A DNA stretch of 64,000 nucleotides from Candidatus Aldehydirespiratoraceae bacterium (GTDB lineage Bacteria > Actinomycetota > Acidimicrobiia > Acidimicrobiales > Aldehydirespiratoraceae). This document shows, one piece after another, positions 2,965 to 64,000 of the stretch. The stretch covers positions 18,473 to 82,472 of the forward strand of contig CBDEVU010000018.1 of assembly GCA_965243715.1 (NCBI GenBank), written 5' to 3'. Every line of letters starts with the position of its first letter. Position 1 is the first letter of the stretch. Under the pieces are notes generated by a model. That model was given only the letters and a program-made list of their open reading frames with translations. It made no database searches and was not told the DNA's origin. Made by a program: the position numbers and the translations under genes.

Positions 2965-3011
2965 CCGCCGTTAGCTCAACCCCCGTTAGCTCAACCCGCC
3001 GTTAGCTCAAC
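2965..3011. repeat. Intergenic tandem repeat, 3 units of about 16 bp (CCGCCGTTAGCTCAAC / CCCCGTTAGCTCAAC / CCGCCGTTAGCTCAAC)
   Basis: Read directly from the sequence between the convergent stops of 2094..2963 (+) and 3007..3957 (-). The last unit contains the minus-strand stop codon. Confidence 0.9.
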
Positions 3012-3957: not shown

Positions 3958-4355
3958 GTATTCACCGCGGCGCGCACCGCGGCAACCACCTCGGCGGCGG
4001 GCGCACCTGGGCCGAGGATGGCGGCCACACCGGCGGCCTCCAACGCGGGCATGTCGACCTCGGGGACGATGCCGCCAACGATCAGCGGGATGTCGAGGTC
4101 GGCTTGATCGAGAGCCGTGAGCATGGCTGGAGCGAGCGTAAGGTGGCCCGCGTTATGCATCGAAAGTCCGATGGCGTCGGCGTCTTCTTGTTTGGCCGCG
4201 GCCACGATGGAGAGCGCGGTTTGGCGGAGGCCGAGATAGATGACCTCCATCCCCGCGTCGCGCAAGATGCGGGCCACAACCTTGATCCCGCGGTCGTGGC
4301 CGTCGAGTCCTAGCTTGGCTAAAACGATGCGAATCTGCTGATCCTTCGCCATCAC
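3954..4355 (-). CDS. icmB: Acyl-CoA mutase small subunit (cobalamin-binding domain)
   Basis: 133 aa. LAKLGLDGHDRGIKVVA contains the DxHxxG B12-binding motif. Overlaps the stop of the large subunit. GTG at 4355 or ATG at 4352 are both possible starts. Confidence 0.8.
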   Translation of the reverse strand: MMAKDQQIRIVLAKLGLDGHDRGIKVVARILRDAGMEVIYLGLRQTALSIVAAAKQEDADAIGLSMHNAGHLTLAPAMLTALDQADLDIPLIVGGIVPEVDMPALEAAGVAAILGPGAPAAEVVAAVRAAVNT

Positions 4356-17023: not shown

Positions 17024-17923
17024 ATGGGAGTTGCGACCACCGACCCAGCGGTACGGCTTGATGTTCAATCGCTGCGCGTCTTTTGCGAACTCGTTGCATC
17101 TGATGGGTTCACCGCCGCCGCCACCCGTCTCGGCGTCACCCAATCGGCGGTCAGTCACAAGATCAAGCGGCTAGAAGAACGCATAGGGGTGGACCTGATT
17201 CGGCGCGACGGCCAATCGTTCGCGGTAACCGCCGACGGTCTCGATCTCCTTGTCCATGCTAAACAGATCGTGAGGGCGCATGACTTGGCCGTGGATTCGC
17301 TTCATCGGTCGCCGCTCGTCGGCACGCTGTGCCTCGGGTGCAACGAGGAAGTCGCGGCGACCCAACTCGCTGAGGTCGCCAGTCGGTTCCGTCGTACTCA
17401 CCCCAACGTCACCTTGGAGATCAAGGTCCACGACTCGGCGTGCGTTGCGGACTGGCTGGAATCCGGCGAGGTCGACCTCGCCCTCCTTCAGGTTCTCGAT
17501 GTCGATGGTGCGGTGCGGTCGAACGATGAAGTGTGGCGGCGTGACGAACTCGTGGTCAGGCAAGGCATGGTGGCTGATTTCGATGAAGCGGAACCCGTCC
17601 CGTTGATTTCGTTTGGTCCGCGGTGTTTGTATGAGCCGTGGCTCGTGAGTGCGCTAGCCGCCGTTGGTCGTTCGTTTCGGACCGTTCTGGAGTGCCCAAG
17701 CATTCAAGGGGTTCAGGCGGCGGTTGAGGCCGGACTGGGGGTGGCGGTCCTAAACACGCCCAACCTCACCAGAGCGATGAGGCCTTGGACCGGTCTGGAG
17801 GCGGTCGAACTCCCGCCGGTGGCGTTCGTACTCCGAGTCGCCCCAAGCAGTGGCCCGCGTCCGCTCGCCGAAGCGCTACGACACCATCTTTCGGTCGCGC
17901 TCGAGAAAAGGAATCCGCCGTGA
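17024..17923 (+). CDS. LysR-family transcriptional regulator
   Basis: N-terminal HTH (LRVFCELVASDGFTAAATRLGVTQSAVSHKIKRLEERIG) plus an LTTR substrate-binding domain. Confidence 0.9.
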   Translation: MGVATTDPAVRLDVQSLRVFCELVASDGFTAAATRLGVTQSAVSHKIKRLEERIGVDLIRRDGQSFAVTADGLDLLVHAKQIVRAHDLAVDSLHRSPLVGTLCLGCNEEVAATQLAEVASRFRRTHPNVTLEIKVHDSACVADWLESGEVDLALLQVLDVDGAVRSNDEVWRRDELVVRQGMVADFDEAEPVPLISFGPRCLYEPWLVSALAAVGRSFRTVLECPSIQGVQAAVEAGLGVAVLNTPNLTRAMRPWTGLEAVELPPVAFVLRVAPSSGPRPLAEALRHHLSVALEKRNPP

Positions 17924-19478
17924 GTACTCCCGCGTCCACCGCCGCGCCTAGGGCCCGCCGAGGGCGGGGTGCTCGCCGGCAAGCCCGTACTGCGTACACC
18001 CAACGCTTTTTGCCCGAACTCGAGAGAGGTTTGCCGTACCTCGACGCCCTACTGCCGGAGCAGGTACAACTCGTCCACGACCACACGATGAGGTTGCTGG
18101 AGACAACGGGAATCGACTTCCGCGACGACGAAGCCATTGAAATGTGGAGCCAAGCTGGTTCTGGCGGGGGAGTGGCTATAGACGGCTACCGCGTCCGCAT
18201 CGACCGCGAACTTCTCATGGGACTCATAGCCACCGTGCCGAGCGAATACACGATGGTTGCCCGAGATTCGGCCCGTACAGTCTCTGTCGGTGGCCGCAAG
18301 AGCATTTTCACTCCTGCCTACGGCGCGCCGTTCGTGCTCGACTTGGAGGGCAGGCGTCGGAACGCGACGCTCGAGGACTTCGACAATTTCGCCAAGATTG
18401 CCCACATGACTCCTGCCATGCAGATGAGCGGAGGTGTGCTGTGCGAGCCGATGGACATTGCGGTCGCCCACCGCCACCTTCGCATGACGTACAGCCTCAT
18501 CAAGCACTCTTCCAAGCCCTTCATGGGCTCTGTCACCTCTCGGGAACGAGCTCAAGACAGCCTCGATATGACCAAGATCGTGTTCGGCGAGGACTTTCTC
18601 GAGGAGAACACGGTCATGACCTGCTTGGCCAACGGTAACTCGCCGCTCGTGTGGGATTCCACGATGCTCGATGCGGTGAAGGTCTACGGGGCAGCTAACC
18701 AGGCCATGCTGTTTTCGCCCTTCGTGCTGGGTGGAGCCTCGACCCCCGCGTCGACGATTGGCTCGGTGGTGCAGATTAACGCCGAAGCGCTGGCCGGCGT
18801 GGCTTTTAGCCAACTAGTGCGGCCCGGAGTTCCCGCCGTGTACGGCCAGTGGCTGGCGACTGTTTCGATGAAAACCGGCGCGCCTATGGCGGGCACCCCA
18901 GAGATCGACCATATGAACCTTCTCGTTGGACAACTGGCCCGTCACTACGAACTCCCCTGGCGTTGTTCGGGATGTGCTCATCGTCGAAGCAGGTGGACGC
19001 ACAGGCGGGCTATGAGGCCGCCCGCAATATGTACGGTGCGGTCCTCGCGGGGGCAAACTTTGTTCTCTCCACCACCGGCTACCTCGAATCGGCGCTGTGT
19101 CAGAGCTATGCCAAAGCAGCCCTCGACGGCGAGCAAGCGGAAATGTTTCGCACGTTTGCCGAGGGCATTAGGTTTGATGAACTCGATGCCGCGCTCGACG
19201 CGATGAACGATGTCGAACCCGGGGGCCACTTCCTTGGCACCGCGCACACGCTGGCCAATTTCGAACGAGCTTTTTCGATGCCTGAGTTGATGGACTGCAA
19301 CGGGTTCGATCAGTGGACGGCGACCGGTGCGCAGGACGCCAACGCCCGTGGGGCTAAGAAGTGCCAGCAACTCCTCGCTGATTACGAAGAACCAACCTTG
19401 CCCGACGACATCGACGAGGCGCTACGTGATTTCGTCGCCCGGCGAATCACCGAGATCCCTGAGACTGGCAATGACTAG
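17920..19478 (+). pseudogene. MttB-superfamily (non-Pyl) quaternary-amine:corrinoid methyltransferase, copy 1, with its reading frame broken by an apparent 1-nt deletion near 18969..18971
   Basis: Two ORFs (17785..19206 and 18849..19478) are collinear with intact paralogs 33198..34760 and 58429..59976. Joining them gives LPWRCSG|MCSSSKQVDAQAGYE versus paralog LPFRSGGQFTASKYPDAQAAYE. GTG start overlaps the lysR stop (GTGA). Confidence 0.75.
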
Positions 19479-19502
19479 CACCCCGCCTCTGCTAAGCGGA
19501 AC

Positions 19503-32421: not shown

Positions 32422-33201
32422 ATGTCCCACGTGCAAGCCGTCGATCGAGCGCTGCTCCTACTTAGCGAAATAGGCCGAGAGTCTGGCGGATTGGTCGACC
32501 TCGCGAGCCGTGTCGATTTGGCCACGAGCACAGCGGCTCGGCTGTTGAATACCCTGGAGTCGGCAGGTGCCGTTCGCCGCAGCGACGACGCGAGCTACGA
32601 GATCGGTCCGCTGATCCAGTCCCTGACCGCCGCGCCCGAAGGTAGCCAGCGCCTAGAGCAACTAGTTCATCCCCACCTCGTCGAACTATCTACTCAACTT
32701 GATGAAGCGGCGTGCCTTGCTTTGATCTCTGGTGACGAAACCGTCACCGTCGATCAGGTTGACGCCCCCAAGCCGGTCCAGGCCGAGAACTGGACGGGAA
32801 CCCGCGTCCCCCTTCACGCTGGGGGAGCGGGTCTGGTCGCCATGGCAACCTGGGACGACGTGGAGGTCGAGCGCTACCTAAGCGGCGAACTCGTGGCGTG
32901 CTCTGCCCTCACTGTCACCGACCCGGCAAAGCACCGGTGCCGCCTCGAGGAGATCCGTCGCACCGGCGTGTGTTGGACGCACGGCGAATACGTCGAAGGT
33001 CTATCCTCGCTGTCGGCGGCCATCCAAGATGTGTCGGGTCGAGCGGTGGCCGTGCTCTACACCTACGGGCCGAGCTATCGCTATCCCGCGCCCGGGTCGG
33101 CCGAAAAGGTGGCTCGCACCGTCTGGGCCCGTGCTGAACGCATCTCCATCCAACTGGGCTGGACGGGTTCGCTTACACCAGTGCGAAACGAGGCTTCGTG
33201 A
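32422..33201 (+). CDS. IclR-family transcriptional regulator
   Basis: N-terminal wHTH (VQAVDRALLLLSEIG...LVDLASRVDLATSTAARLLNTLESAGAVRR) plus an IclR effector domain. Confidence 0.85.
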   Translation: MSHVQAVDRALLLLSEIGRESGGLVDLASRVDLATSTAARLLNTLESAGAVRRSDDASYEIGPLIQSLTAAPEGSQRLEQLVHPHLVELSTQLDEAACLALISGDETVTVDQVDAPKPVQAENWTGTRVPLHAGGAGLVAMATWDDVEVERYLSGELVACSALTVTDPAKHRCRLEEIRRTGVCWTHGEYVEGLSSLSAAIQDVSGRAVAVLYTYGPSYRYPAPGSAEKVARTVWARAERISIQLGWTGSLTPVRNEAS

Positions 33202-34760
33202 CCGAGGTTCGCTCTTCTACCGGCACGGGAACCAAGCGGAAACGTGGTGGGGGTCGTCGCCAACGTCCTGCGGCGCCGGTTGGCCCGCCGCAACGGCCCT
33301 GGCAACTCTACCGCCGCCCGATTGAGGCCACCAAGGTTGTGTCAGAGGATGAACTCGAGAACATTCATCAGACTTCGCTCATCGTGCTGCGCGACATTGG
33401 CCTGGATTTTTTGCATCCCACGGCGCGCAAGATGTGGGCTGAGGCGGGGGCTAAGGTTGACGACGAGCGGGTTCGATTCGATCCCGCCCTCATCGAAGAC
33501 CTCGTTGCTTCGGCGCCGAGCGAGTTCGTGATGTACGGGCCGGATCCTGCCTACGACATTCACGTCGGCGGCGACAGCGTGGTGTTCACCGCCGTGGCCA
33601 GCGCCCCGAACTATGCCGATCGGGCGGGGGGTCGTCGTACTGGTAGTCAGGAGAGCTTTCGCACACTGGTGAAGTTGTGTCATCAACTTCACATCATCCA
33701 GAGCTTGCCTGGTTACCCGGTTGAGCCGATTGATCTCCACCCGTCGATCCGTCACCTTGAAGCTACCCGCGACATGCTGACCCTCACCGGCAAGGCCGTA
33801 CACGCCTACTCCCTGGGGAAGCAGCGCAACCTGGACTGTCTCGAAATGGTGCGGATTCGGCGCGGCCTTAGCGAGGACGAAATCGATACCCATCCCATTG
33901 TGCATTCGGTCGTTAACGTCAGTTCACCGTTGCGACTCGACGGTCCAATGATCGAGGGAATACTGCAGTTTTCGGCTCGTAACCAGCCCATTATTGTCAC
34001 GCCGTTCACCCTGGCGGGAGCAATGGCCCCAGTCACGATTGTAGGAGCCGTCGTACAGCAAAACGCCGAAGCCCTCGCCGGACTTGCCTTTTGCCAACTG
34101 GTTCGCCGCGGCTCGCCGGTGGTGTATGGCGGATTCACTTCCAACGTCGACATGCGCAGCGGGGCGCCCGCGTTTGGGACTCCTGAGTTCATGCAGTCGG
34201 CGATGCTCGGCGGCCAGCTAGCGCGGCGCTATAACTTGCCGTATCGCAGTTCTAACGTGTGTACTGCCAACACCATCGATGCCCAAGCGGGCTACGAGAG
34301 TGTGTTTTCGCTCTGGGGCGCGATCATGGGCGGGGCCAACATAGTTCTCCATGGTGCGGGCTGGATGGAAGGCGGACTGCAGGCCAGTCCGGAAAAGATG
34401 GTGATTGACGCCGACCTGCTCCAGATGGTGGCGACCTTCTTGCAACCGCTCATCGTCGACGACGCAACTATGGCGGTCGAAGCAATCGTCGACGTCGGCC
34501 CCGGCGGGCACTTCTTTGGCACCCAGCACACCCAGGATCGTTACCGAGACGCCTTCTACCGTCCCATGATCTCTGACTGGCGAAATTATGAAAGCTGGGA
34601 AGAAGCGGGTAGTCCAACGGCTTACGACCACGCCGAACGGGTCGCCCGAGACCTGCTCTCCACCTACGAACCACCACCCATAGACACCGCGGTGCGGGCC
34701 GAACTTGACGATTTCGTCGAGCGGCGAATCGCCGAGGGCGGTGTCGACACCGACTTTTAG
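33198..34760 (+). CDS. MttB-superfamily (non-Pyl) methyltransferase, copy 2 (intact)
   Basis: 520 aa, collinear with copies 1 and 3. No in-frame TAG. GTG start overlaps the iclR stop (GTGA). Confidence 0.85.
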   Translation: MTEVRSSTGTGTKRKRGGGRRQRPAAPVGPPQRPWQLYRRPIEATKVVSEDELENIHQTSLIVLRDIGLDFLHPTARKMWAEAGAKVDDERVRFDPALIEDLVASAPSEFVMYGPDPAYDIHVGGDSVVFTAVASAPNYADRAGGRRTGSQESFRTLVKLCHQLHIIQSLPGYPVEPIDLHPSIRHLEATRDMLTLTGKAVHAYSLGKQRNLDCLEMVRIRRGLSEDEIDTHPIVHSVVNVSSPLRLDGPMIEGILQFSARNQPIIVTPFTLAGAMAPVTIVGAVVQQNAEALAGLAFCQLVRRGSPVVYGGFTSNVDMRSGAPAFGTPEFMQSAMLGGQLARRYNLPYRSSNVCTANTIDAQAGYESVFSLWGAIMGGANIVLHGAGWMEGGLQASPEKMVIDADLLQMVATFLQPLIVDDATMAVEAIVDVGPGGHFFGTQHTQDRYRDAFYRPMISDWRNYESWEEAGSPTAYDHAERVARDLLSTYEPPPIDTAVRAELDDFVERRIAEGGVDTDF

Positions 34761-34782
34761 GCTGAATCATTTGAGATCAATT

Positions 34783-36051: not shown

Positions 36052-36063
36052 AAGGTAGTCCTA

Positions 36064-38619: not shown

Positions 38620-38625
38620 ACGAAG

Positions 38626-45836: not shown

Positions 45837-47093
45837 TCAGCTAATCTCGGTGATTGCTTCGGCGATCCAGCCGTCGACGAGAGCCTGGTTCGTGGCCAGC
45901 CATTCGCTCGCAATGCGAACGATTTCCTCTTGGGTGCCGTCACCGTTACTCTGCTCGACCATCAGGACCAAAATGTCGATCAGCGAAGGCTTGATCTTCG
46001 GGAAGAGCGCGCCCAAGACCGGGTTCGCTTCTAGAACCTCGGTACGGGCGGTGACCTGGATGTCAGCGGCCTTCCATCCCAACTGGCAGGGGTCGGTGCA
46101 GAACTCAGGACCAAAGCCGGAGAAGCCCTCTTCTTGGGTGTGGGCTTCGCCGCCCTCGGTTCCCACCGGGTTTGAGTCGTCTAGGATCTTGGTTGGGTGC
46201 ATGGTGAGCCAGTACACGTTGTCGCCGGGGATGAGTTTGGTGACGTAGGCGGACGGCGACCAAGTGTAGATAGCCATAGGCTCGCCTGCGTTGGCCTTAT
46301 TGAGAGCCTCTGCGATCATCGCGTCGTAACCGGCCTTGGTCTGCTCGATGTTGTTCCACTCGTAGAAGGCGATTTGGGAGGTAAAGATGTCGTCGCAGGT
46401 CCAACTCTCAGGACAGCCGAAGATCTCAGCCTTGCCGTTTCCGTCGCTGTCGAACAAGGCGACGAGTTCGGGGTCATCGTTGATCTGCTGCATGGAGGTG
46501 ATGTTGTATTCGTCGACGACCGACTTGGTAGTCAAGAAGCCTTGCACACCCGAGTTCGGGAAAAGGCCCTCGACTACGGTCAAGTAATCTCCTACGATAC
46601 TGCCGTCGGGTAGCTCAGCGGCGTGCCAACTAAAGTGGCCGGGGTACCAACTGTTGGTCCAGAAGTCCATGGAACCTTCAGCCATGGCCAAGTAAGCGGC
46701 GGACGGATCGAGCTCTTTGTTCTCCGGTAGACCGATGGTGTAGCCCATCGAGGTGAGGATCTGGTTGTAGATCTCGGCCTGGATATAGCCCGACGCCCAA
46801 GTGGCCCGGCCCATTACGAGTTCAACGCCCTCGCCAATCGTTGCGGGGTCAAGGCCCCCATTAGCGTCTTCTTCATGTTCATGAGCGTCTTCTTCGGCCA
46901 TGTCTTCTTCTTCGGCCATGTCGTCTTCTTCGGCCATGTCTTCTTCAGCCATGTCTTCTTCTTCAGCCGCGGCCGCAGAGTCGTCTTCACCTGCGTCGGA
47001 ACTGGTGTCGGTGGTTTCGTCGTCGCCACACGCCGCTGCGAACAGTGCAAACACTGCAAACAAGGCGAGCAGCATTTTGGTGCTCTTTTTCAT
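45837..47093 (-). CDS. proX: Glycine betaine/proline betaine ABC transporter substrate-binding lipoprotein
   Basis: Lipobox LFAAAC after MKKSTKMLLALFAVFA, an acidic repeat linker, then an OpuAC-type domain (WASGY, WYPGHFSW aromatic box-like). ATG 47093 is preceded by GGAGGGG. Confidence 0.8.
   Translation of the reverse strand: MKKSTKMLLALFAVFALFAAACGDDETTDTSSDAGEDDSAAAAEEEDMAEEDMAEEDDMAEEEDMAEEDAHEHEEDANGGLDPATIGEGVELVMGRATWASGYIQAEIYNQILTSMGYTIGLPENKELDPSAAYLAMAEGSMDFWTNSWYPGHFSWHAAELPDGSIVGDYLTVVEGLFPNSGVQGFLTTKSVVDEYNITSMQQINDDPELVALFDSDGNGKAEIFGCPESWTCDDIFTSQIAFYEWNNIEQTKAGYDAMIAEALNKANAGEPMAIYTWSPSAYVTKLIPGDNVYWLTMHPTKILDDSNPVGTEGGEAHTQEEGFSGFGPEFCTDPCQLGWKAADIQVTARTEVLEANPVLGALFPKIKPSLIDILVLMVEQSNGDGTQEEIVRIASEWLATNQALVDGWIAEAITEIS
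46887..46968. repeat. Imperfect 15/18-bp tandem repeats (GTCTTCTTCGGCCAT-like, 5 units) encoding (MAEED)n in the ProX linker
   Basis: Read directly. Confidence 0.85.
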
Positions 47094-47225
47094 TCGTTTC
47101 CCCTCCTGGGAATAGTGATGCCGAGTGGCATGCGCCACGCGACGATTAGAGATCATAGTGGATTATTGGTAATGGCGCGTCGTTGGCACAGATTTACCGG
47201 ACGGCAGCCGCCGTGACATACCTTC

Positions 47226-49352
47226 CTAAACTGTCTCGTGGACTCTCTTCTCGATGGCTGTGGAGTCGCGGTGGAGGACCAAATCGGCCTCGTCGTCGAA
47301 GACCTCGATCCGGAAGAACTCATTTATCAAGGACCTGCCACTCGACACGAAGAACAGGCCCGCCATCAAGACGAGGAAGGCGCCGATGCCGCTGACGTAG
47401 CCATCGTCGGAGGAGCGGGCGAGCGAGGCGATCCACGCTCCGCCAATCGCCGCGATGGAGAGACCAAGGCCGACCGACACCACACTCCAGCGCCACTTTT
47501 TGTGGGGGGCCGCGCCGAAGGCACCGGAAGCCATCACGACCGCTCCCACCCCGATCAAGCCAAGACGGATGAGAAGCGGACCTAAGCCGGTGCCAGCATC
47601 GTTCCAGCTATCGTGGATTTCCTTGCTCAGTCGCCGAGCCGAGCTGTGGATCGCCGAGATCTCCACCGCGTTCTGTGAGGTCAAGGCCGGGTTCTCGTCG
47701 GCCTCTACGGTCAGACGCTCAACCTCGGCGACGTCCTCGGGACTCAGAACTGAATTGTCGCGTTGGTCGAACGACCAACCCGACAATGAGCCGATGACCA
47801 ACACACCGATCGCCAAGGCGGCACCAACCAACTTGTGGTACTCGGTGCCTTTCGGGACTGGCCGGTGCGGTGCGTACGGCGCATCGGACAATGCCGTCAG
47901 CCCTCCGATAATGGCGATCACCGTACCGATCAAGGCCACGGTGACGCCGATGCCGTCGCTGTAGTTGAGCGCCATATTCGATGGGTTCATGGCGAAGTAC
48001 CCGATGGCACCACCGAATCCGAGGAACGCCGCCATGGTGACACCATCAGCGCTGAAGTAGCGGGGGCTGCCAACCCGGGTCAGACGGCTGAGGGCCGCCA
48101 AGATGATAAAGAGGGAGCTGCCCAAGACTATGAAGCCGAAGAAGGTTCCCCCTTCGGCCGCCAGACCGCTGAAGCTCGCACCGAAGAGATCGGCATCACT
48201 GAAACGACTGTGGCTGGTGACCATGCCCGCGTCGGTGCCCCATGTGAGAAACACCGAGACAACGCCGATGACCGCACCCACGATGGCGATCTTGAGGCCT
48301 CGGCCCTCCTTTGGCGAGATGCCAGCCGGATGGCCGCCGTAGTTCTCCTCTTCAAGTTCCGCATCCATGGCGCTATCGACATCGAGTAGTTGGGCCTGCG
48401 GGTTCGCTCGGTTAGCCCATGCCCCCCGAATCTTCTGCATGAGGCTCGCGCCGTGGCCTTCAACGGGCTGGGAGATGCGGTCGAGGGTGACCGCCACTAA
48501 GAAGAAGGCCAAACCGGCTGACGCGCCCCGTGCGACATTCTGGCTCGATAGCGCTCGGAACATGAGAGCACCAAGACCGCCCGCCCCCATGATGGCCGCT
48601 ATGCCCAACATCGAGATCGACAACAGCAAGGTCTGGTTGACGCCGGTCATGATGGCTGGGCGAGCCAGCGGGATCTGGACATCGGTGAGTACCCGATACT
48701 CCGACGCGCCGTAAGCTCGACTGGCTTCGACCACGTCTTCGGGAACTTGTCGGATACCGAGATTGGTGAGTCGAATGAGCGGAGGCAAGGCGAACACCAT
48801 CGTCACCATGGTGGCCGAAACCTCACGCAGTCCGAAGAAGAAGATGAACGGCAACATGTACACGAACGAATGCACTACCTGCATGGCATCGAGCACGGGT
48901 CTCACCACCGACCACACGGGATCTATTCGACCACAGGCAATGCCAACGGGTATACCGATGGCAACGCAGAGAATCACCGCCACAAAGATGAAGCCGATGG
49001 TCTTGGCCGTCTCGATCCAGTAACCCGGGCCAAGAATGCCGCAGAAGCTCAAAGCGACGAGGGCGAAGAGTCCGACGCGTAAAGAGCGGAACATCCAGCC
49101 GATCATGAACATCAAGAGGACAATCCAGATCCAAGGGAGTCGCACGAGGAAGTCCGTGACCAAGAGGTTCAAAAGGGTGTCGAACGGCCACTTGATCACA
49201 TCGAGGAGTCCGCCGAGTTGGTTATCAATCCAGAACACGCCCTGCTCAACCCATTCACCAAATTCGATCTCCCATTCGTCGAGGACCGCCGTTTCGTAGA
49301 TCTTAGGATTGTTGGAACCGGTTGATTCTGCTTCTTGGATGAAACTCATCAC
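47226..49352 (-). CDS. proW: Betaine ABC transporter permease (ProW/OpuAB-like, N-terminal ~300 aa) fused to a ~400-aa polytopic membrane extension of unknown function
   Basis: The BPD_transp_1 region contains the EAA-like loop (EASRAYGASEYRVLTDVQIPLARP). The C-terminal 400 aa has about 8 extra hydrophobic helices with no motif I recognise. Confidence 0.75.
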   Translation of the reverse strand: MMSFIQEAESTGSNNPKIYETAVLDEWEIEFGEWVEQGVFWIDNQLGGLLDVIKWPFDTLLNLLVTDFLVRLPWIWIVLLMFMIGWMFRSLRVGLFALVALSFCGILGPGYWIETAKTIGFIFVAVILCVAIGIPVGIACGRIDPVWSVVRPVLDAMQVVHSFVYMLPFIFFFGLREVSATMVTMVFALPPLIRLTNLGIRQVPEDVVEASRAYGASEYRVLTDVQIPLARPAIMTGVNQTLLLSISMLGIAAIMGAGGLGALMFRALSSQNVARGASAGLAFFLVAVTLDRISQPVEGHGASLMQKIRGAWANRANPQAQLLDVDSAMDAELEEENYGGHPAGISPKEGRGLKIAIVGAVIGVVSVFLTWGTDAGMVTSHSRFSDADLFGASFSGLAAEGGTFFGFIVLGSSLFIILAALSRLTRVGSPRYFSADGVTMAAFLGFGGAIGYFAMNPSNMALNYSDGIGVTVALIGTVIAIIGGLTALSDAPYAPHRPVPKGTEYHKLVGAALAIGVLVIGSLSGWSFDQRDNSVLSPEDVAEVERLTVEADENPALTSQNAVEISAIHSSARRLSKEIHDSWNDAGTGLGPLLIRLGLIGVGAVVMASGAFGAAPHKKWRWSVVSVGLGLSIAAIGGAWIASLARSSDDGYVSGIGAFLVLMAGLFFVSSGRSLINEFFRIEVFDDEADLVLHRDSTAIEKRVHETV

Positions 49353-50569
49353 ATGAACACCTCTCGCTCGAAGTTGTCTATGAGGCTCTCGACTCGGCCC
49401 ATTTCTTCCATGATGTGGCGGGGGTCGAGATTGCCGACGAGACAGCCCTTGTCATCAACGACGGCGATGGGCAGGCCCTGACCGGCCGCGGCGTAGACCG
49501 TGTTGAGGGTAGAGTGAGCCGTAGTTGATTTGAAGTCCGTACGGACTCCGTCGACAATACTGGTTTGGTCCTGGTTGGCGGCATTGATGCCGTCAGCGGC
49601 GGTGAAGACACCGGTTGGCGCGCCGTTGTCGTCGAGCACGAATGCGCCTGCTCGGTCACCGAGTTGAGTCAAGGCATCCCGTAGTGACATTGAGGCCGAC
49701 ATTGGGGCCGGTTGCAACATGATTTCGTGGACCTCTATTACGCGGCCCTGGTCGACGTCCTGCACGAACTCCGCCACGTACCCGGTGGCGGGCTCTGTGA
49801 GGATCTCCTCGGGGGTCCCGATCTGGACGACCTCGCCGTCTTTCATGATGCAGACACGGTCGCCGATACGAAGGGCTTCGTTGAGGTCGTGGGTGATAAA
49901 CAGGATTGTCTTTTTCAGTTCCTGCATGATTTCCATCATCTCGTCTTGCATCTGGCGCCGGATGAGCGGGTCGAGGGCGCTGAACGCCTCGTCCATTAGC
50001 AAGATTGGAGGATCGGCGGCGAGGGCTCGGGCTAATCCCACCCGTTGCTGCATACCGCCCGACAGTTGGCTAGGTGAGTAACCGGCATAAGCCTGCAGGC
50101 CGACGAGCGAGAGCGCCTTTAGCGATGCGGCGTCGCGCTCGGACTTATGGAGGCCCTGAATCTTGAGGCCGTAACCTACATTGTCGATTATCGAGCGGTG
50201 AGGGAACAGGGCGAAGTGCTGGAACACCATTCCGGTTTCCTCGCGGCGAAACGCCTGAAGTTCACGCCCCCCGAGGGTTTGCACGTCGACACCGTCGACC
50301 CACACATGACCGTTGGTGATGTCAAGAAGTTTGTTGACGGTGCGGATGGCGGTCGATTTTCCTGAACCAGATAAGCCCATGATGACAAAAATCTCGCCGC
50401 GAAGAACCTCAAAGTTCACGTCGCGAAGACCAACTACATGTCCGGTGCGGGCGTGTACCTCATCCTTTCCCATACCAACTTGGGAAAGCTCGAATGCTCG
50501 GCCCCCTGGCTGGGGTCCGAATATTTTATATACGTTCTCCACCTTGACGATCACGTCCGGTTTGATCAT
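49349..50569 (-). CDS. proV: Betaine/proline ABC transporter ATPase with tandem CBS domains
   Basis: Walker A GLSGSGKST, signature LSGGMQQRVGLARAL, Walker B ILLMDEAFSALD, and a CBS-like C-terminal half. ATGA overlap with proW. Confidence 0.9.
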   Translation of the reverse strand: MIKPDVIVKVENVYKIFGPQPGGRAFELSQVGMGKDEVHARTGHVVGLRDVNFEVLRGEIFVIMGLSGSGKSTAIRTVNKLLDITNGHVWVDGVDVQTLGGRELQAFRREETGMVFQHFALFPHRSIIDNVGYGLKIQGLHKSERDAASLKALSLVGLQAYAGYSPSQLSGGMQQRVGLARALAADPPILLMDEAFSALDPLIRRQMQDEMMEIMQELKKTILFITHDLNEALRIGDRVCIMKDGEVVQIGTPEEILTEPATGYVAEFVQDVDQGRVIEVHEIMLQPAPMSASMSLRDALTQLGDRAGAFVLDDNGAPTGVFTAADGINAANQDQTSIVDGVRTDFKSTTAHSTLNTVYAAAGQGLPIAVVDDKGCLVGNLDPRHIMEEMGRVESLIDNFEREVFM

Positions 50570-57483: not shown

Positions 57484-57494
57484 CGAGTCGAAGC

Positions 57495-58412
57495 TCAGTC
57501 GGTGACTTCCCATGGCGCGACCCACTCGCCCGCCATGCGAAAGGAGAGCCCGGCATCGTCCTCCAGACGTTTAGCCACATGAAGTTCGCCCGCGTCGCGG
57601 CCGTAGCGCTCGGCGGCTTCGGCAAAAACCCCTTGGGCGGCATCGGTCATCACTAGGTCGCGGCCCACATGGCGCGCCAAGTCGCCGATGAGCCTGAGGT
57701 CTTTGAGACACAGGTCGAGCGTGAACGAGGGGTCGTAGTGGCCAGCAAAGATCGATGGGCCATCGTGGCGGGCTACGAATGAGTCGCCGACCGAGTCGCA
57801 GATCGCGTCGTAGAGGACCGACAATTCGACCCCGTTGGCCATACCCAGCGCGAAACCTTCGCCGATCGCCGCGGCGTGGATGAACCACAATTGGTTGGTG
57901 ACGAGTTTCACGACGTTTCCCGTGCCGAGTCCGCCACAGCGGATGACGCGTCCCATGGTTTCGAGTACGGGAGTGACTCGGTCGAGATCGGCGTCGCGGC
58001 CGCCCGCGAAGAGGGTAAGTCGACGATTGCGGGCCCCGTCAACGGCGCCGGTAACGGGTGAGTCGACGACGGTGACACCTTCGGGGGCTTCGTCGGCCAG
58101 TGCCTGCACGACCTCGCGTCGATTCGTGGTGAGATCCGCCCATAGCGATCCGGGCCGTAGCGCGGCGAGGGCGCCGCTGGCGCGCATTACCGCTTCGACA
58201 TGATCCGGGCGCGGTAGCGAGGTCAACAAGATGTCGGCTTGGGAGGCCACCACGGCAACATCGTTGGCCGTGCTCGCGCCAGCCGCGGTGGCTTCGGCGA
58301 CGGCTTCTGGTCGAAGGTCGAAGGCCACTACAGTAAAGCCCGCCTCGATCAGGTTGAGGCACATGGGGAGTCCCATGTTGCCGAGGCCAATGAACCCGAT
58401 GGTGTCAGTCAC
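57495..58412 (-). CDS. NAD(P)-dependent beta-hydroxyacid dehydrogenase (3-hydroxyisobutyrate/6-phosphogluconate dehydrogenase family)
   Basis: IGFIGLGNMGLPMCLNL Rossmann motif directly after GTG 58412. The longer ORF to 58682 runs into the mttB copy-3 gene. Confidence 0.8.
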   Translation of the reverse strand: MTDTIGFIGLGNMGLPMCLNLIEAGFTVVAFDLRPEAVAEATAAGASTANDVAVVASQADILLTSLPRPDHVEAVMRASGALAALRPGSLWADLTTNRREVVQALADEAPEGVTVVDSPVTGAVDGARNRRLTLFAGGRDADLDRVTPVLETMGRVIRCGGLGTGNVVKLVTNQLWFIHAAAIGEGFALGMANGVELSVLYDAICDSVGDSFVARHDGPSIFAGHYDPSFTLDLCLKDLRLIGDLARHVGRDLVMTDAAQGVFAEAAERYGRDAGELHVAKRLEDDAGLSFRMAGEWVAPWEVTD

Positions 58413-58428
58413 GACGATGCTCGTTTGG

Positions 58429-59976
58429 TTAGTAGGCTGCGTCAGGCATTTCCGACTTGCGCCGTGCGATGTAGTCTTGAAGTTCGGCGTCGATTGCCTC
58501 GTCCAAGCCCGGACCTTGGTATTCGGCGAGCATCCGCTTCCATGTCCGGTTGGCTCGCTGGGCCGCGGTGAGTCCGCCATCTTCGGTCCACTGTTCGAAG
58601 CTGTTGTTGTCGGCTTCGGTCGACCGGTAGAAGGCGGTTTCGAAGTTGGCCAGGGTGTGATTGTTGCCGAGGAAGTGCTCACCGTGGGGATTGCTGCGGA
58701 AGGCGTCCATGGCCTGGCCGTTCTCGGACATGTCGATACCGCGGGCGTAGACGCCCATCATGCCGAGTTGGTCGGCGTCGAGGATGAGTTTTTCGTAACC
58801 TAGGGCCAAGCCGCCCTCTTGCCAGCCAGCGGCGTGCAACACAAAGTTCACCCCCGCGTTTATGGCGGGCAGAATCGTGGAGGCTGATTCGTAGGCCGCT
58901 TGGGCATCGGGGTACTTCGACGCAGTGAACTGGCCGCCGGAACGAAAGGGCAGGCCCACCCGGCGTGCCAGCGAAGCCATGACGTTGATGGCCTGGCCCG
59001 CCTCGGGTGTGCCGAAGGTCGGTGCGCCGGTGGCCATCGACATAGACGAGGCAAAGGTGCCGAAGATAACCGGTGCGCCGGGTCTAACCAGTTGCACGTA
59101 GGCCATTCCCGACAACGCCTCGGCGAGGGCTTGAGCGGCGAGCCCAGCAACGGTGACCGGCGACATGGCCCCCGCGAGGATGAACGGCGACATGATGCAC
59201 GCTTGGTTGGCCCGGGCGTATTGCGTAGCGGCGCCGAGCATCGTGGCGTCCCAGCGCAACGGCGAGGAGGCATTGATGAGCGAGGTCATCACGGTGCGAT
59301 CCTCAAGGTCGCCGCCAAAGCCGATGCGGGCCAACTCGATAGAGTCCGCGGCTCGGTCCGCCGCAGTCACCGAACCCATGAACGGCTTGTCGCTGTACTT
59401 GAGGTGGGAGTACACCATGTCGAGATGGCGCTTGTTGACCGGCACATCGACGGGTTCACATACTGTGCCGCCGCTGTGGTGAAGGTGAGGCAGGTCGTAT
59501 ACGAGTTTCACAATGTTTTGGAAGTCCTCGATGGTGCCGTAGCGGCGACCGTTGTCGAGATCCATCACGAACGGGGAACCGTAGTTCGGGGCAAATACCG
59601 TGCAGTTCTCGCCGATTTTCACGCTTCGTTCGGGGTTGCGGGCGTGCTGAAGGTAGAACCTCGGCGCGTTCTGCTGAATGATTTCGCGGCACATTCCTTT
59701 GGGGAACTTGACGAGGTCACCGGTTACGGCCGCCCCCGCGGTGCGCCACAGGTCAAGGGCCTCGGGGAACTCCTGAAAGGCGATCCCGATCTCGGCCAGG
59801 ATGGTTTCGGCGTTCTCCTCGATCTGGCTGAGGGCGTCGTCGTCGAGCATGTTGACTGGGGGAATCTTGCGCTCTAGGTAGGCAACGGTGGCCGCGGTTG
59901 ATGAGGCCCGAGCGGCTTGTCGCCCCGCTCGCCCTCCCCCTCGACGGCCGCCGGAACGGGCTGCGGTTTCGCTCAT
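58429..59976 (-). CDS. MttB-superfamily (non-Pyl) methyltransferase, copy 3 (intact)
   Basis: 515 aa, collinear with copy 2. No in-frame TAG. ATGA overlap with the upstream activase gene. Confidence 0.85.
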   Translation of the reverse strand: MSETAARSGGRRGGGRAGRQAARASSTAATVAYLERKIPPVNMLDDDALSQIEENAETILAEIGIAFQEFPEALDLWRTAGAAVTGDLVKFPKGMCREIIQQNAPRFYLQHARNPERSVKIGENCTVFAPNYGSPFVMDLDNGRRYGTIEDFQNIVKLVYDLPHLHHSGGTVCEPVDVPVNKRHLDMVYSHLKYSDKPFMGSVTAADRAADSIELARIGFGGDLEDRTVMTSLINASSPLRWDATMLGAATQYARANQACIMSPFILAGAMSPVTVAGLAAQALAEALSGMAYVQLVRPGAPVIFGTFASSMSMATGAPTFGTPEAGQAINVMASLARRVGLPFRSGGQFTASKYPDAQAAYESASTILPAINAGVNFVLHAAGWQEGGLALGYEKLILDADQLGMMGVYARGIDMSENGQAMDAFRSNPHGEHFLGNNHTLANFETAFYRSTEADNNSFEQWTEDGGLTAAQRANRTWKRMLAEYQGPGLDEAIDAELQDYIARRKSEMPDAAY

Positions 59977-62048
59977 GATGGTTCCTCGGTTTCTTTCGGT
60001 CGTCGGCGGCGCCGGCCTCGACCGGCACCGTCTTGAGCTTCAGTGCGTTCGGGTAAGTCAACTATGGCCCGCAGGTGCGGACTAGGGGCGGTGGCGTGCG
60101 GGAAGGCCATCGCGGCGACAAATAAGTCCTGGAAGCGAGGCTCTGTGGCGGTCTCGATCTTTTCGATCTGCCGCACGGCCGCGGCGATCTCGTGGCGTTG
60201 CTGGGCCGAGACCAAGAGGCGCACTGCCCCCGCACCCGAGGAGTTGCCAACTGCCCGAACGCTCTCGACTGGGCAGTCGGGTACGAGTCCGAGAACGAGG
60301 GCGTAGATCGGATCGATGTGAGTACCGAAAGCGCCAGCGAGACGAACGTCGTGGACTTCGGCAATGCCAGCGTGTTCCATCAACAAGTCGATGCCCGCCC
60401 GCAGCGCCGAACCGGCTAACTGGATCTGTCGTATATCGTTTTGGGTGATGGCCAGTTGCGGCTCTTCGGTGCCGTCGTTGTTTTGGCCCGCGGCGCGGAT
60501 CACATAAGTAAACGTTCGTCCATCGGCCACGACGCGCGGCGAGCGCTCGGCTAGCGAACCCTGAATTACGCCTTTGTGGTCACATATACCGGCGAGGTAG
60601 ATCTCGCCCACGATCTCGATGATGGCTGAGCCACAGAGGCCCGCGATGTCGAGTTTGGCGGTCTGGCGGGCGAATTCTGGTTCATCGGACCAAGCGTCGG
60701 CCCCGATCACCCTGAAGCGCGGCTCGAGCGTGGTGCGGTCGATACGGATGCGCTCAATGGCCCCGGCTGTGGCGCGCATGCCACAAGATATTTGCGCCCC
60801 TTCGAACGCCGGGCCGGTGGGAGAAGACGCGGCGTAGGTGCGTTGGGCGGTACCGAGGACGATTTCGGCGTTGGTTCCAACATCGACTAGAAGTTGAGGT
60901 TCGGTCGTGCGGTGAGTGCCTTCGTTGAGGGTGGCCGCCGCGGCATCGGCTCCGACATGCCCCGCGATGCACGGGGCAATGTGGGCTCGGGCGTTAGGTA
61001 ACGCCAGGCCGAGTTCGTCGGCTCGCATGTCGACGGGTTCGCCGATCGTTAGCGTGAACGGCGCGGCGCCCAGCGGGGTCGGATTAATGCCCAAAAAGAG
61101 GTGATGCATCACCGGATTACCGACCAACACGACATCGTGAATGCGGGACCGAAGGTCAGAGGGGGCAAGATCAGAGGCGAGTCCGGTGGCGAGGTCTTCG
61201 ATCAAGTCGTCAAGTGCTTGGCGGATTACCGCGGTGAGTTCGTCCTCCCCCCCGGGATTCATCATGACGTAGCTGACCCGGCTCATAAGATCCTCGCCGA
61301 AGCGGATTTGTGGATTCATGGCGCCGCTGGTGGATACGACCTCGCCGGTGGCTAGATCGACGAGGTATCCGGCGAGAGTGGTGGAGCCAACGTCGATGGC
61401 CGCGCCGTAGATTGCTTCGTCGAACCCGGCCCGTACCGCCATCACCGTGCCATCCGCGTGGACAATCGCGGTGATGGCTCGTGAGCCGTGGACGATGGCC
61501 GGATGCAGGTCGGGGAGCACGCGGGCATCGACGGTGGCTCCTTCGATGCCCCAGTCTTGGCGAAGGGCTTCTCGGAGCAGTTCAGCGTCGGATCGCTCGT
61601 CGCCCAATTCGACTTCGGGCAACTCGATGTAGCGGGCTGCGATAAGGGGGTCGAGGGTGAGCCCGGCTAGGTCGATCTTCTTGCGTACAACGGGACGATG
61701 GACTTGCGAGGCGGCGGGAATATCGACGACAACATCGGCATAGACCGTTGCCTGACAGCCGAGACGGTTCCCTTCTTCGATCGTGCGGCGACCCTTGTAG
61801 TTCGTCTCGACCGATGTCCACGCGGACACCGCGTCGCGGGTCGAGGTGATGTTCCATTTGGCGAATTCGCCCTGCGTGGGGCTGACCTGGCAGCGGCCGC
61901 AAAGACCGCGACCGCCACAGGTCGAGTCGATGTCGACCCCAATCCTGCGTGCCACGTCAAGCACGGTGGTTCCGGGCGCGACGGTGGTCTGGACCCCGGA
62001 CGGGGTGAAGACGATCGTAACGTCGTCGGCTCGGATGGGTGGGAGCAT
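59973..62048 (-). CDS. Corrinoid reductive activase (RamA/RACE-like): N-terminal plant-type 2Fe-2S ferredoxin plus an ASKHA (DUF4445) ATPase body
   Basis: CGGRGLCGRCQV...LGCQ ferredoxin motif. The long ASKHA-like region has DVGSTT / DVGTNAE phosphate-binding-type motifs. 691 aa. Confidence 0.75.
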   Translation of the reverse strand: MLPPIRADDVTIVFTPSGVQTTVAPGTTVLDVARRIGVDIDSTCGGRGLCGRCQVSPTQGEFAKWNITSTRDAVSAWTSVETNYKGRRTIEEGNRLGCQATVYADVVVDIPAASQVHRPVVRKKIDLAGLTLDPLIAARYIELPEVELGDERSDAELLREALRQDWGIEGATVDARVLPDLHPAIVHGSRAITAIVHADGTVMAVRAGFDEAIYGAAIDVGSTTLAGYLVDLATGEVVSTSGAMNPQIRFGEDLMSRVSYVMMNPGGEDELTAVIRQALDDLIEDLATGLASDLAPSDLRSRIHDVVLVGNPVMHHLFLGINPTPLGAAPFTLTIGEPVDMRADELGLALPNARAHIAPCIAGHVGADAAAATLNEGTHRTTEPQLLVDVGTNAEIVLGTAQRTYAASSPTGPAFEGAQISCGMRATAGAIERIRIDRTTLEPRFRVIGADAWSDEPEFARQTAKLDIAGLCGSAIIEIVGEIYLAGICDHKGVIQGSLAERSPRVVADGRTFTYVIRAAGQNNDGTEEPQLAITQNDIRQIQLAGSALRAGIDLLMEHAGIAEVHDVRLAGAFGTHIDPIYALVLGLVPDCPVESVRAVGNSSGAGAVRLLVSAQQRHEIAAAVRQIEKIETATEPRFQDLFVAAMAFPHATAPSPHLRAIVDLPERTEAQDGAGRGRRRRRPKETEEPS

Positions 62049-62072
62049 TAGCTGACGTTAGGCTGTGTGGCG

Positions 62073-62976
62073 CTAGGTTGGCCGGCGACGGCCGCCGCGA
62101 CGACGGGCTCCACCCGCGCCGCCTCCGGCGTTGGGATCGCGGTTCTCGCGAATCCAAGAAGCGCAGTTGTTGTCGCTTCCGGTGAGAACGTCGGCCGCCA
62201 TGATCGCAGTCTTTACCTCGGGGTGCATCGGGTTCATGATCGCTGAGGTCATGCCCGCACCCATCGCCATGGCGAGGAACGTTCCCGTGACGTGCGTGGC
62301 GGTTAGGAAGGCCAAAGCTGACGTTCGACGCCCCGCAGGTAGTGTTGACGCCGAGTTCCTCGCGCAGGCGGCGAACGAGAGAGAACACTTGTTGGCCCGC
62401 AGTGCCAATCGCGCCGATGGGCATCACGAGCGGATCGACGACAATGTCGTGGGCTGGGATCCCGAAGTCGGCCGCGGTGTGGACGATCTTTTTGGCCACC
62501 GCGAAGCGAACGTCTGGGTCTTCTGAAATACCGGTTTCGTCGTTGGATATGGCCACGACAGCCGCACCGGCTCGAGCAACCAGCGGGAGGACCCGTTCGA
62601 GGACCTCTAGTTCGCCGGTCACCGAGTTAATAAGCGGCTTGCCGTCGTAGGCCTCGATACCGGCTTCGAGCGCCTCGATGATTGAGGAGTCGATGGCCAG
62701 CGGCACATCGGTAATCGACTGCACGAGTTTGATGGCCTGGGCGAGTAGCGCCGGTTCGTCGGCTAGCGGGATGCCGGCGTTCACGTCGAGCATCTGCGCG
62801 CCCGCCGCAACCTGGGCTAGGGCATCGGCCTCCACGCGGCTGAAGTCGCCGTTCTTCATCTCTTCGGCCAAGAGTTTGCGGCCGGTTGGGTTGATGCGCT
62901 CGCCAATCATGACGAACGGACGGCCAAAGCCGATCACGACCTCTTTGGTCGCCGAACTAATAACGGTCTCGGTCAC
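62073..62976 (-). pseudogene. Pterin-binding methyl-corrinoid:tetrahydrofolate methyltransferase (MeTr/MtgA/MetH-domain-like), with its frame broken by an apparent 1-nt insertion near 62288..62296
   Basis: Frame A (61957..62976) reads IGERINPTGRK...LDVNAG...AIDSS...INSV...CGASNVSFGLPNRH and then becomes nonsense. Frame B (62073..62408) resumes VTGTFLAMAMGAGMTSAIMNP. Deleting one base restores GLPNRHAVTGTFL with the family-typical spacing. Confidence 0.7.
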
Positions 62977-63323
62977 TGGGCTTCTCCTGGCTGTTCAGGG
63001 TCGAGACCACCGGCGGCGACAAGCGCCTCCAAGCGGTCTCGGGGATAAGTTGATTCGAGGATTTCGGCTGTCTGGCGAGCGACGGCGATGGGATCACCGT
63101 CAACGGAGGTCGCCACACGACGCCACTCGTTGACGTAGGCGTCGGCATCGGTCAGGCCCGCCACGGCGGCGGCTCGGTCGATGGCAACCTGGAACCGTTG
63201 ATGCAAAAGCACCGGTTCTTTGGCGCCTTGTCCGCCGGTGGCGGTGACCTGGGCCGGAATGTCACGCCAAAAGATCGTGATCAAGCCCGGTCCGCCCCGA
63301 CCGCGGCGTCGGTTGGTGGTCAT
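62973..63323 (-). CDS. Small 'virulence factor'-family protein (Pfam Virulence_fact, PF13769 as I recall), function unknown
   Basis: 116 aa. IFWRDIPAQV motif after an RG-rich N-terminus. 4-nt overlaps with both neighbours. Confidence 0.55.
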   Translation of the reverse strand: MTTNRRRGRGGPGLITIFWRDIPAQVTATGGQGAKEPVLLHQRFQVAIDRAAAVAGLTDADAYVNEWRRVATSVDGDPIAVARQTAEILESTYPRDRLEALVAAGGLDPEQPGEAQ

Positions 63324-63943
63324 TTGCTTGCCCGTTCGTTTAGGGCGCCACGGCTGATCTCGACTAGGGCTGGTTCGAGGTCGCCGTAGCTAGTGGATAC
63401 CCGCTCGAAGCGAAGGCCTAGACGATCGGCCGCGGCTTGGCCCCGGGTGTCGAGATCAGGATCAGAGGTTTGGGCAAGATAGATCATCTTGGTGTAGTTA
63501 CCGAAATACATGTCCCGCAGTTCTGGGTGGGCTTCGATACCAAGACCGTCCATGATGATTCGGTCGAAATGTTTGACGAGAAAGTCGGTGAGGTAAAACG
63601 CCGTCGGATCGTCATTGTGCATGTCGAGAAATTCTTGCTGGCCCGCGAAGAACTGGTAGCAGTGGTCGCCGGGGAGCATCTCAATTCCCGCTTGGGCGCA
63701 GATATCGGCCAGTTCGCCCGCCGTCCCGCAGTCGGCGTAGCCGAGCAAGATGCGGTCGAAGTTCCCTTGAGCTCGGTCGAGTCGGGCTCGGACCGCATCA
63801 GGAATCTCTGTTGGTCGGTTGTGTAAAACGGCTGGGAGACACTCCAATGTGACATTGTCGAGTTGGTGTAGTCGCGCAATGTCACGGATCTCTCGAGCCA
63901 GGGCACCACAGGCCAAGATTAGAACCCGCGGCGCGGCGTTCAC
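63320..63943 (-). CDS. DUF1638-domain protein, function unknown
   Basis: 207 aa. VLILACGALAREI, LLGYADCGT and GDHCYQFF are motifs as I recall them for DUF1638. GTGA overlap with the upstream CDS. Confidence 0.6.
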   Translation of the reverse strand: MNAAPRVLILACGALAREIRDIARLHQLDNVTLECLPAVLHNRPTEIPDAVRARLDRAQGNFDRILLGYADCGTAGELADICAQAGIEMLPGDHCYQFFAGQQEFLDMHNDDPTAFYLTDFLVKHFDRIIMDGLGIEAHPELRDMYFGNYTKMIYLAQTSDPDLDTRGQAAADRLGLRFERVSTSYGDLEPALVEISRGALNERASK

Positions 63944-64000
63944 GCGGCCCGCTTGGCTGACATCAACGCCGAAGCCGTCTCGGCCGCCACCGCGGCATCG
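63940..64000 (-). CDS. 3' end of an upstream co-oriented CDS (possibly the corrinoid-binding carrier protein); only 19 codons visible
   Basis: Open frame ...DAAVAAETASALMSAKRAA* ends in a TGA that overlaps the DUF1638 GTG. The identity is pure context inference. Confidence 0.3.
   Translation of the reverse strand, partial: DAAVAAETASALMSAKRAA

Follow-up and report, generated by a model that had tools for sequence, protein, structure and literature searches.

The minus strand at the end of a 64,000-nucleotide stretch from a Candidatus Aldehydirespiratoraceae bacterium (GenBank assembly GCA_965243715.1, contig CBDEVU010000018.1, positions 18,473 to 82,472; this whole stretch is hereafter called the window) carries a string of genes that probably encodes an oxygen-tolerant cobalamin methyl-transfer module of the MtgB/MtgC/MtgD type. 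Two of its members, a DUF1638 protein and a small protein of the Pfam family 'Virulence_fact' (PF13769; hereafter VF), would be conserved accessories of this module. The open reading frames (ORFs) are joined by 4-nucleotide start/stop overlaps (GTGA/ATGA) at 63940-63943, 63320-63323, 62973-62976 and 59973-59976, and the string reads, from the window end inwards:

63943..64000, minus strand: last 19 codons (3' end) of the gene for an MtgC-like corrinoid protein of 229 residues in full
63320..63943, minus strand: DUF1638 protein, 207 residues (Pfam PF07796)
62973..63323, minus strand: VF, 116 residues (Pfam PF13769)
62073..62976, minus strand: pterin-binding methyl-tetrahydrofolate (methyl-THF):corrinoid methyltransferase, MtgD/AcsE-like (Pterin_bind), with a frameshift at 62295
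59973..62048, minus strand: 'RamA-like' ATP-dependent reductive activase of the RACo type, [2Fe-2S] domain at the N-terminus (Fer2 and RACo domains)
58429..59976, minus strand: MttB-1, a non-pyrrolysine MttB-family substrate:corrinoid methyltransferase (Pfam MTTB)
57495..58412, minus strand: beta-hydroxyacid dehydrogenase-family gene, 305 residues, at the end of the string (NAD_binding_2 and NAD_binding_11)

An initial annotation, made from the letters and ORFs, had described this string with the same four overlaps, and our ORF check returned the same coordinates. It had also placed 63320..63943 in DUF1638 and 62973..63323 in Virulence_fact and had assigned families to the other genes of the string; these assignments are borne out by Pfam matches, which exceed the curated gathering cut-offs for all string proteins. 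The scheme that it proposed (an MtgB-type methyltransferase, a corrinoid protein, a methyl-THF methyltransferase and an ATP-dependent activase) fits the Pfam and NCBIfam results.

The order of the operon is not a product of chance, as it recurs in essentially all long-enough loci among 80 Acidimicrobiales species loci. In these loci the genes run corrinoid protein, DUF1638, VF, pterin-binding methyltransferase, activase and MttB. Counted relative to VF, with the loci that have enough flank as denominators, the corrinoid protein gene accompanies it in 74/74 loci, DUF1638 in 70/75, the pterin gene in 70/70, the activase in 62/62 and MttB in 58/58. Nearly all close homologues derive from metagenome-assembled genomes of marine or aquatic Acidimicrobiia. 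The terminal dehydrogenase (E = 9e-39 for NAD_binding_2/11 in Pfam) was found only among closer relatives within the Acidimicrobiales loci. Its start is most likely 58412, in agreement with the gene call of the contig L001 described below, and not the ORF start at 58682; this places it 16 nucleotides past the MttB-1 stop. Promoter and terminator scans of 56800-64000 gave no signal exceeding the shuffled expectation.

Methyl-transfer components of the operon

Because the window ends within the first gene of the string, we read the corrinoid protein from L001, a 2.8-Mb metagenome contig in ENA that was reached by an exact look-up of the DUF1638 product and extends beyond the window end. L001 is 99.8% identical to the window across 10.7 kb, and the 3' end of the corrinoid gene in the window is identical to L001 9944-10004. 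The complete product contains B12-binding_2 and B12-binding domains, the DxHxxG motif in the form DIHDIG and the sequence SALLTTT, and thus the truncated upstream gene is the DxHxxG corrinoid protein that the initial annotation had suspected. In L001 it is preceded by a divergent leucyl-tRNA synthetase gene. The best NCBIfam matches of this protein are MtgC/pyl_corrinoid models, all under their equivalog cut-offs. The activase is composed of Fer2, RACo_linker, Raco_middle and RACo_C_ter domains (E down to 1e-81), and its top NCBIfam match is AcsV, with 353 bits vs a cut-off of 800. Scores against the equivalog models of the anaerobic MtgC/RamA systems likewise lie below the cut-offs (NF047996, 198 vs 370 bits; NF047995, 162 vs 310; the RamA model TIGR04270, 116 vs 500, for the activase).

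MttB-1 matches the Pfam MTTB profile with 727 bits (E = 6e-219), and its nearest solved structures are 4YYC (646 bits), followed by DhMtgB (2QNE/9YCE). Betaine is bound in DhMtgB by residues Y97, R312, H348 and F356 (PMC13080624), three of which are kept in MttB-1 as Y132, R345 and H381. Judged from this alignment, glycine betaine is the probable substrate of MttB-1, and the context in the window supports it, where the three MttB paralogs are joined by genes for an OpuAC ATP-binding cassette (ABC) transporter and a DMGDH-like enzyme. The MttB-1 ORF is uninterrupted, with zero in-frame UAG codons and a Phe at the position of pyrrolysine, and it scores 244 bits against the pyrrolysine-dependent MttB model TIGR02369 (cut-off 525). 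An Rfam search of the window and L001 found neither a cobalamin riboswitch nor other RNA elements and gave one match, to PYLIS_3, inside mttB (58830-58929, minus strand, just over the gathering score). We rejected it as a pyrrolysine signal, because the UAG position reads UUC (Phe), and attribute it to coding homology within MttB-1.

The pterin-binding methyltransferase belongs to the family to which the initial annotation had assigned it; the frameshift in the window copy had been overlooked. Compared with L001, the site 62291-62295 is one base longer, with the surplus base at 62295, and shows an adjacent A-to-G change. The frame shifts past residue ~226 (...GLPNRH), and the out-of-frame tail overlaps the start of the activase gene. 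Pterin_bind (E = 5e-23) matches the first frame over positions 1-211 of the 244-position profile only, and the conserved C-terminus TFLAMAMGAGMTSAIMNP sits in another frame, in ORF 62073-62408, ending at 62073. The L001 gene is intact and encodes 300 residues (NCBIfam PRK07535, 360 bits vs a cut-off of 259). The window gene counts as an orthologue of MtgD, albeit a frameshifted one. Since this near-identical strain carries a plain, uninterrupted gene, we dismissed a programmed frameshift.

Over 31.6 kb shared with the sister assembly we counted 49 substitutions, 38 synonymous and 11 non-synonymous, and four indel events. DUF1638, VF and the window part of the corrinoid protein gene are free of substitutions relative to L001. 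This distribution of synonymous and non-synonymous changes looks biological, and therefore the window represents a distinct strain rather than a noisy copy; the two assemblies are real, distinct strains. The frameshift at 62295, and a second one at 18969 in the paralog MttB-3 (see below), may be mutations or assembly errors. The other differences from the sister contig include a 2-nucleotide insertion at the start of a DHDPS gene (19500-19501) and an in-frame 18-nucleotide insertion in a DM13-domain gene (25054-25071). The same sample holds a second, more divergent strain contig (L170).

Based on the families present and on established work on MtgB, AcsE-type and RACo proteins, we propose a methyl-transfer cycle with ATP-dependent repair. 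MttB-1 would demethylate a quaternary amine (most likely glycine betaine) and place the methyl on cob(I)alamin of the corrinoid protein, and the pterin-binding enzyme would hand the methyl on to tetrahydrofolate (THF). Should the cofactor become oxidised to cob(II)alamin, the activase would bring it back to the cob(I) state by means of its [2Fe-2S] domain and ATP.

DUF1638 and the Virulence_fact protein

The DUF1638 protein matches PF07796 with 110.8 bits vs a cut-off of 27 (E = 8e-32), in a family with at least 7,972 matches. Residues C12, C35, H41, C72, H94 and C95 are invariant between the Acidimicrobiia protein and proteobacterial members at 44% identity. A more divergent member, the metagenomic protein P0273, has Tyr in place of C35, whereas C12, C72, C95, H41 and H94 are kept from Actinomycetota to Proteobacteria. 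The AlphaFold2 model (predicted local distance difference test, pLDDT, 89.7) shows an alpha/beta fold in which the conserved Cys and His residues lie just after successive beta-strands, predicted positions where a ligand or metal site would usually be expected.

The initial annotation had considered DUF1638 unaccounted for by established work, which does not hold. Phaeobacter inhibens possesses a split B12-dependent methionine synthase, and its ferredoxin-DUF4445 and DUF1638 mutants are methionine auxotrophs (Price 2018, PMC5764234). The same authors found that DUF1638 co-occurs with a RamA-like protein across Alphaproteobacteria and offered no specific function (PMC5764234). In Ruegeria the protein is betaine-induced and labelled 'B12-reactivation' (Mausz 2025, PMC12478193).

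VF matches PF13769 with 68 bits vs a cut-off of 25 (E = 9e-19). The protein features the near-invariant motifs WRDIPAQ, RFxxAID and YxxxWR, with zero conserved Cys or His residues, and its AlphaFold2 model (pLDDT 88) adopts a beta3-alpha-beta-alpha2 arrangement. The family comprises at least 1,036 clusters at 50% identity; a Rhodobacterales-like (Roseobacter-type) VF query returned at least 8,000 scored candidates, the named matches being Roseobacter-group genera. NCBIfam holds no model for DUF1638 or VF. Our literature searches, which covered one searchable library, found no link of PF13769/Virulence_fact to corrinoid systems, so that the association seems unreported, and the name 'virulence factor' is unsupported in the context of corrinoid operons. 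In Ruegeria pomeroyi, the 'uncharacterized protein' SPO1861 is encoded directly ahead of SPO1862 (MetF-like) and SPO1863 (MtgD) and was significantly higher in two of four N-osmolyte comparisons, with zero control peptides (proteome in PMC12478193). By its position, which matches that of VF in Ruegeria sediminis, SPO1861 is presumably VF.

Both proteins are conserved beside corrinoid genes, as the initial annotation had predicted; our neighbourhood comparison found this in Actinomycetota, Alphaproteobacteria and Betaproteobacteria. VF lies upstream of the pterin gene in all 70 Acidimicrobiales and all 37 Rhodobacterales-like loci with enough flank. The gene order in Azoarcus is corrinoid protein, DUF1638, VF, MetV-like, MetF, pterin and ASKHA. 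In Sinorhizobium and Shinella, VF, MetV-like, MetF and pterin genes are followed further on by ASKHA, near MttB, the corrinoid protein and DUF1638. Roseobacter-type loci read VF, MetF2-like, pterin, the middle gene matching the MTHFR structure PDB 7XG9 at 3.6e-49. In Sinorhizobium meliloti (L083 15046-15384) and in L100 (12328-14230), small Pfam-less ORFs separate the pterin methyltransferase gene from that of the activase; such ORFs of proteobacterial loci may be extra lineage-specific accessories.

Domain fusions connect the two proteins with each other and with the activase. An isolate of Terrarubrum flagellatum encodes a 760-residue fusion with VF at the N-terminus, joined seamlessly to a complete Fer2-RACo protein; its locus reads corrinoid protein, DUF1638, VF::RACo. 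P0273 is a DUF1638-linker-VF fusion, and the metagenomic protein P0242 (214 residues) consists of a tandem pair of VF domains, a hint that VF acts as a dimer. These fusions, the position in the operon, the DUF1638 phenotype and co-occurrence together suggest that DUF1638 and VF act on the corrinoid protein/activase side of the pathway; the initial annotation had named corrinoid loading, protection or redox repair as candidate functions. In our reading DUF1638, an alpha/beta protein, would bind a metal or cluster and be required for the corrinoid protein to stay active, and VF would serve as a small adaptor without a cofactor, docking to the activase, to DUF1638 and to the methyltransferase. 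More tentatively, and with a good deal of doubt, we hypothesise a cobalamin repair machine of three parts, DUF1638, VF and the RACo-type activase, that would serve split corrinoid methyltransferases in oxygen-exposed cells. In such a machine DUF1638, by means of a putative Cys/His metal or cluster site in a flavodoxin-like fold, might deliver or gate the electron, and VF, as a dimer-prone adaptor with a fold absent from the PDB, might dock DUF1638 to the [2Fe-2S] domain of the activase and to the carrier/methyltransferase complex.

Several observations weigh against a methyl-transfer module with these two accessories. Neither protein is indispensable in cis, given that a complete MttB/corrinoid protein-DUF1638-MetV-MetF-pterin-ASKHA operon on Paracoccus aminovorans plasmid IV (L168 6330-14531) is without VF, and that in five Acidimicrobiales loci (L044, L051, L055, L060 and L070) VF directly follows the corrinoid protein gene in an operon without DUF1638. 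In genomes of the Roseobacter type VF sits with metF2-mtgD; the corrinoid protein and DUF1638, and often the activase as well, are encoded elsewhere. The five genes needed for methionine synthesis in Phaeobacter do not include VF (PMC5764234). Neither protein matches a solved fold: their sequences gave no match below E = 0.6 against all PDB chains, and Foldseek searches of the models against the PDB returned none at E <= 0.001, with only generic Rossmann/flavodoxin-like matches for DUF1638 and one weak match to an ATP-grasp subdomain for VF. A universal four-Cys site in DUF1638 is weakened, as the Tyr at C35 in P0273 implies that it is not universal. The fourth betaine-binding residue is lost in MttB-1, where G389 aligns with DhMtgB F356 and a Trp stands four residues earlier. 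Finally, the window's copy of the pterin methyltransferase may be non-working, given its frameshift.

The main rival for VF assigns it to the THF branch, as an accessory of the pterin methyltransferase and/or a MetF2-type methylene-THF reductase in methyl-THF hand-over or complex assembly, the fusion to the activase then being incidental; both readings put VF inside the pathway. We regard this alternative as unlikely, though it has evidence of its own. Among the genes downstream of VF, only the pterin gene is a universal neighbour (70/70 and 37/37 loci). Loci of the Roseobacter type, of Rhizobiaceae and of Azoarcus place VF immediately ahead of metF or of metV-metF, with the pterin gene next, and it was DUF1638 along with the RamA-like protein, with no such report for VF, that proved necessary for Phaeobacter methionine synthesis (PMC5764234). 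However, the Acidimicrobiales operons keep VF without metF (0/70), the Terrarubrum locus couples VF to RACo without a nearby pterin gene, and P0273 joins VF to DUF1638. That DUF1638 and VF are unrelated passengers, for example regulators or true virulence proteins with no corrinoid role, is highly improbable and was already disfavoured. The Pfam title of PF13769 ('Virulence factor') speaks for it, as does the fact that neither protein has a demonstrated function or a match to a known fold; it is at odds with the translational coupling of the genes, the position kept in Actinomycetota, Alpha- and Betaproteobacteria, the domain fusions with RACo and DUF1638, the phenotype of the DUF1638 mutant and the free-living habit of the hosts in sea and soil.

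A further alternative concerns the strain rather than the two proteins: the frameshifts in the pterin gene and MttB-3 could be real mutations in a decaying pathway, with methyl transfer to THF lost. Two single-base indels break pathway genes that are intact in the 99.8%-identical contig, and the remaining differences look biological (38 synonymous vs 11 non-synonymous). Against this, all other genes of the string are intact, the corrinoid protein (window part), DUF1638 and VF are free of substitutions, only four indel events occur in 31.6 kb, so that assembly error is possible, and a look-up found the frameshifted 339-residue pterin product on record nowhere. Decay of the pathway in this strain is thus possible, yet we consider it doubtful.

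Other genes in the window

The remainder of the window contains several features that bear on the operon:

55001-56152, plus strand: DmdA-like GcvT-family THF aminomethyltransferase (GCV_T/GCV_T_C), convergent to the operon
56149-57483, plus strand: MFS transporter (MFS_1), convergent to the operon
45837..50569, minus strand: glycine-betaine-type ABC transporter with OpuAC binding protein, permease and ATPase (OpuAC, BPD_transp_1, ABC_tran)
33198..34760, plus strand: MttB-2 (Pfam MTTB, E = 3.5e-190)
17920..19478, plus strand: MttB-3, split across two frames with a break at 18969

MttB-2 and MttB-3, the latter frameshifted, had been overlooked in the initial annotation. MttB-2 shares 36% identity with MttB-1; the Tyr corresponding to DhMtgB Y97 is missing from it, which suggests a different substrate. 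It has no corrinoid protein of its own and belongs to a plus-strand cluster (32422-39933) that reads IclR, MttB-2, Rieske oxygenase, DMGDH-like (DAO+GCV_T) and M24 peptidase; a cobalamin-dependent demethylase here adjoins a candidate oxygen-dependent one. In MttB-3, ORF 17785-19206 covers only positions 2-338 of the MTTB profile and the C-terminal third lies in ORF 18849-19478, as a consequence of a 1-nucleotide deletion relative to the sister contig L169, whose gene is intact (519 residues). Its neighbours are genes for a LysR regulator, DHDPS, aldehyde dehydrogenase and DAO proteins. For the three MttB paralogs we saw only a single gene each for corrinoid protein, pterin methyltransferase and activase, and therefore the three enzymes probably share a module, with the carrier-less MttB-2 and MttB-3 most likely using the carrier and repair components of the operon.

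The DmdA-like protein has DMSP (dimethylsulfoniopropionate) demethylase as its top NCBIfam match (290 bits, under the cut-off of 410), and many Acidimicrobiales loci likewise carry it next to the operon, paired with the MFS transporter. Taken as a whole, the window forms an island devoted to the catabolism of methylated osmolytes. As had been claimed, the surroundings of the operon are aerobic in style: they encode a Rieske oxygenase, a HalD-like protein of the 2-oxoglutarate type, a Mo hydroxylase together with its FAD subunit, and several FAD oxidoreductases. Among the scanned window ORFs there was no match to the homocysteine methyltransferase MtgE (PF02574).

Additional genes include a minus-strand fusion of chorismate-binding (PabB-like) and class IV aminotransferase (PabC-like) domains for para-aminobenzoate/folate synthesis (53202-55007), which adjoins the THF-dependent enzymes. 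A methylmalonyl-CoA mutase gene with a MeaB GTPase gene (3007-5953, minus strand) represents a second B12-dependent enzyme in the window. A DUF222 and HNH endonuclease gene, of a type often tied to mobile DNA in Actinomycetota, lies between metabolic genes at 15797-16912 (minus strand).

Relation to known corrinoid systems

In the sea, betaine-type osmolytes serve as major currencies of carbon, nitrogen and methyl groups, and their cobalamin-dependent demethylation in oxic water was recognised only in 2025. Cells of this kind keep cob(I)alamin reduced without the MetH reactivation domain, which they lack. The initial annotation had envisaged an O2-exposed version of a cob(I)alamin system; an MttB system of this kind does exist, but it had already been published for aerobic marine bacteria and is established by the work of Price 2018 (PMC5764234) and Mausz 2025 (PMC12478193). 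In aerobic Ruegeria pomeroyi, MtgC and MtgD are required for betaine demethylation and methionine synthesis (Mausz 2025, PMC12478193). RamA, DUF1638, MtgC and MtgD are induced there on betaine, and RamA and DUF1638 on N-osmolytes; about 5% of marine mtgC reads belong to Actinomycetota (PMC12478193). The present locus extends the aerobic system to marine Acidimicrobiia, members of another phylum, with all parts in one operon, and singles out DUF1638 and VF as candidates for the missing repair or assembly functions. It adds PF13769 as a conserved, fusion-linked component, as well as the frameshifts in two pathway genes of the window. Roseobacter-group genomes very commonly encode PF13769, which seems never to have come up in a corrinoid context; if the three-part machine were true, the family would carry the wrong name and be a core part of a marine osmolyte pathway that is abundant worldwide.

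The operon is an unusually compact counterpart, in Acidimicrobiia, of the aerobic MtgB/MtgC/MtgD system with its RamA-like and DUF1638 proteins. It has five protein families in common with the Ruegeria pomeroyi and Phaeobacter inhibens systems, namely those of the non-pyrrolysine MttB, the carrier with B12-binding_2 and B12-binding domains, the pterin methyltransferase, the [2Fe-2S]-ASKHA activase and DUF1638, along with an aerobic host metabolism, several MttB paralogs and nearby genes for betaine uptake and dimethylglycine breakdown. It differs from them in its Acidimicrobiales rather than proteobacterial host, in the arrangement as one translationally coupled operon in place of scattered loci, in the lack of MtgE and MetF2 among the window ORFs scanned, in the position of VF within the operon and in the frameshifted pterin gene of the window.

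With the MtgB/MtgC/MtgA/RamA system of the anaerobe Desulfitobacterium hafniense and with the systems for quaternary amines in Eubacterium limosum it shares the reaction logic and an MttB-family enzyme; three of four betaine-binding residues are common to D. hafniense MtgB, whereas F356 is not kept. Unlike in these systems, the carrier and activase fall under the NCBIfam MtgC/RamA cut-offs, the activase belongs to the RACo/AcsV type and carries a [2Fe-2S] domain at its N-terminus, and the genomic context is aerobic. The activase has the domain order of RACo/AcsV, the activator of the acetogen CoFeSP (Fer2, linker, middle and ASKHA). It departs from RACo/AcsV in its score (353 bits vs a cut-off of 800), in having a small MtgC-type carrier rather than CoFeSP as its partner, and in being accompanied by DUF1638 and VF, the latter fused to it in Terrarubrum.

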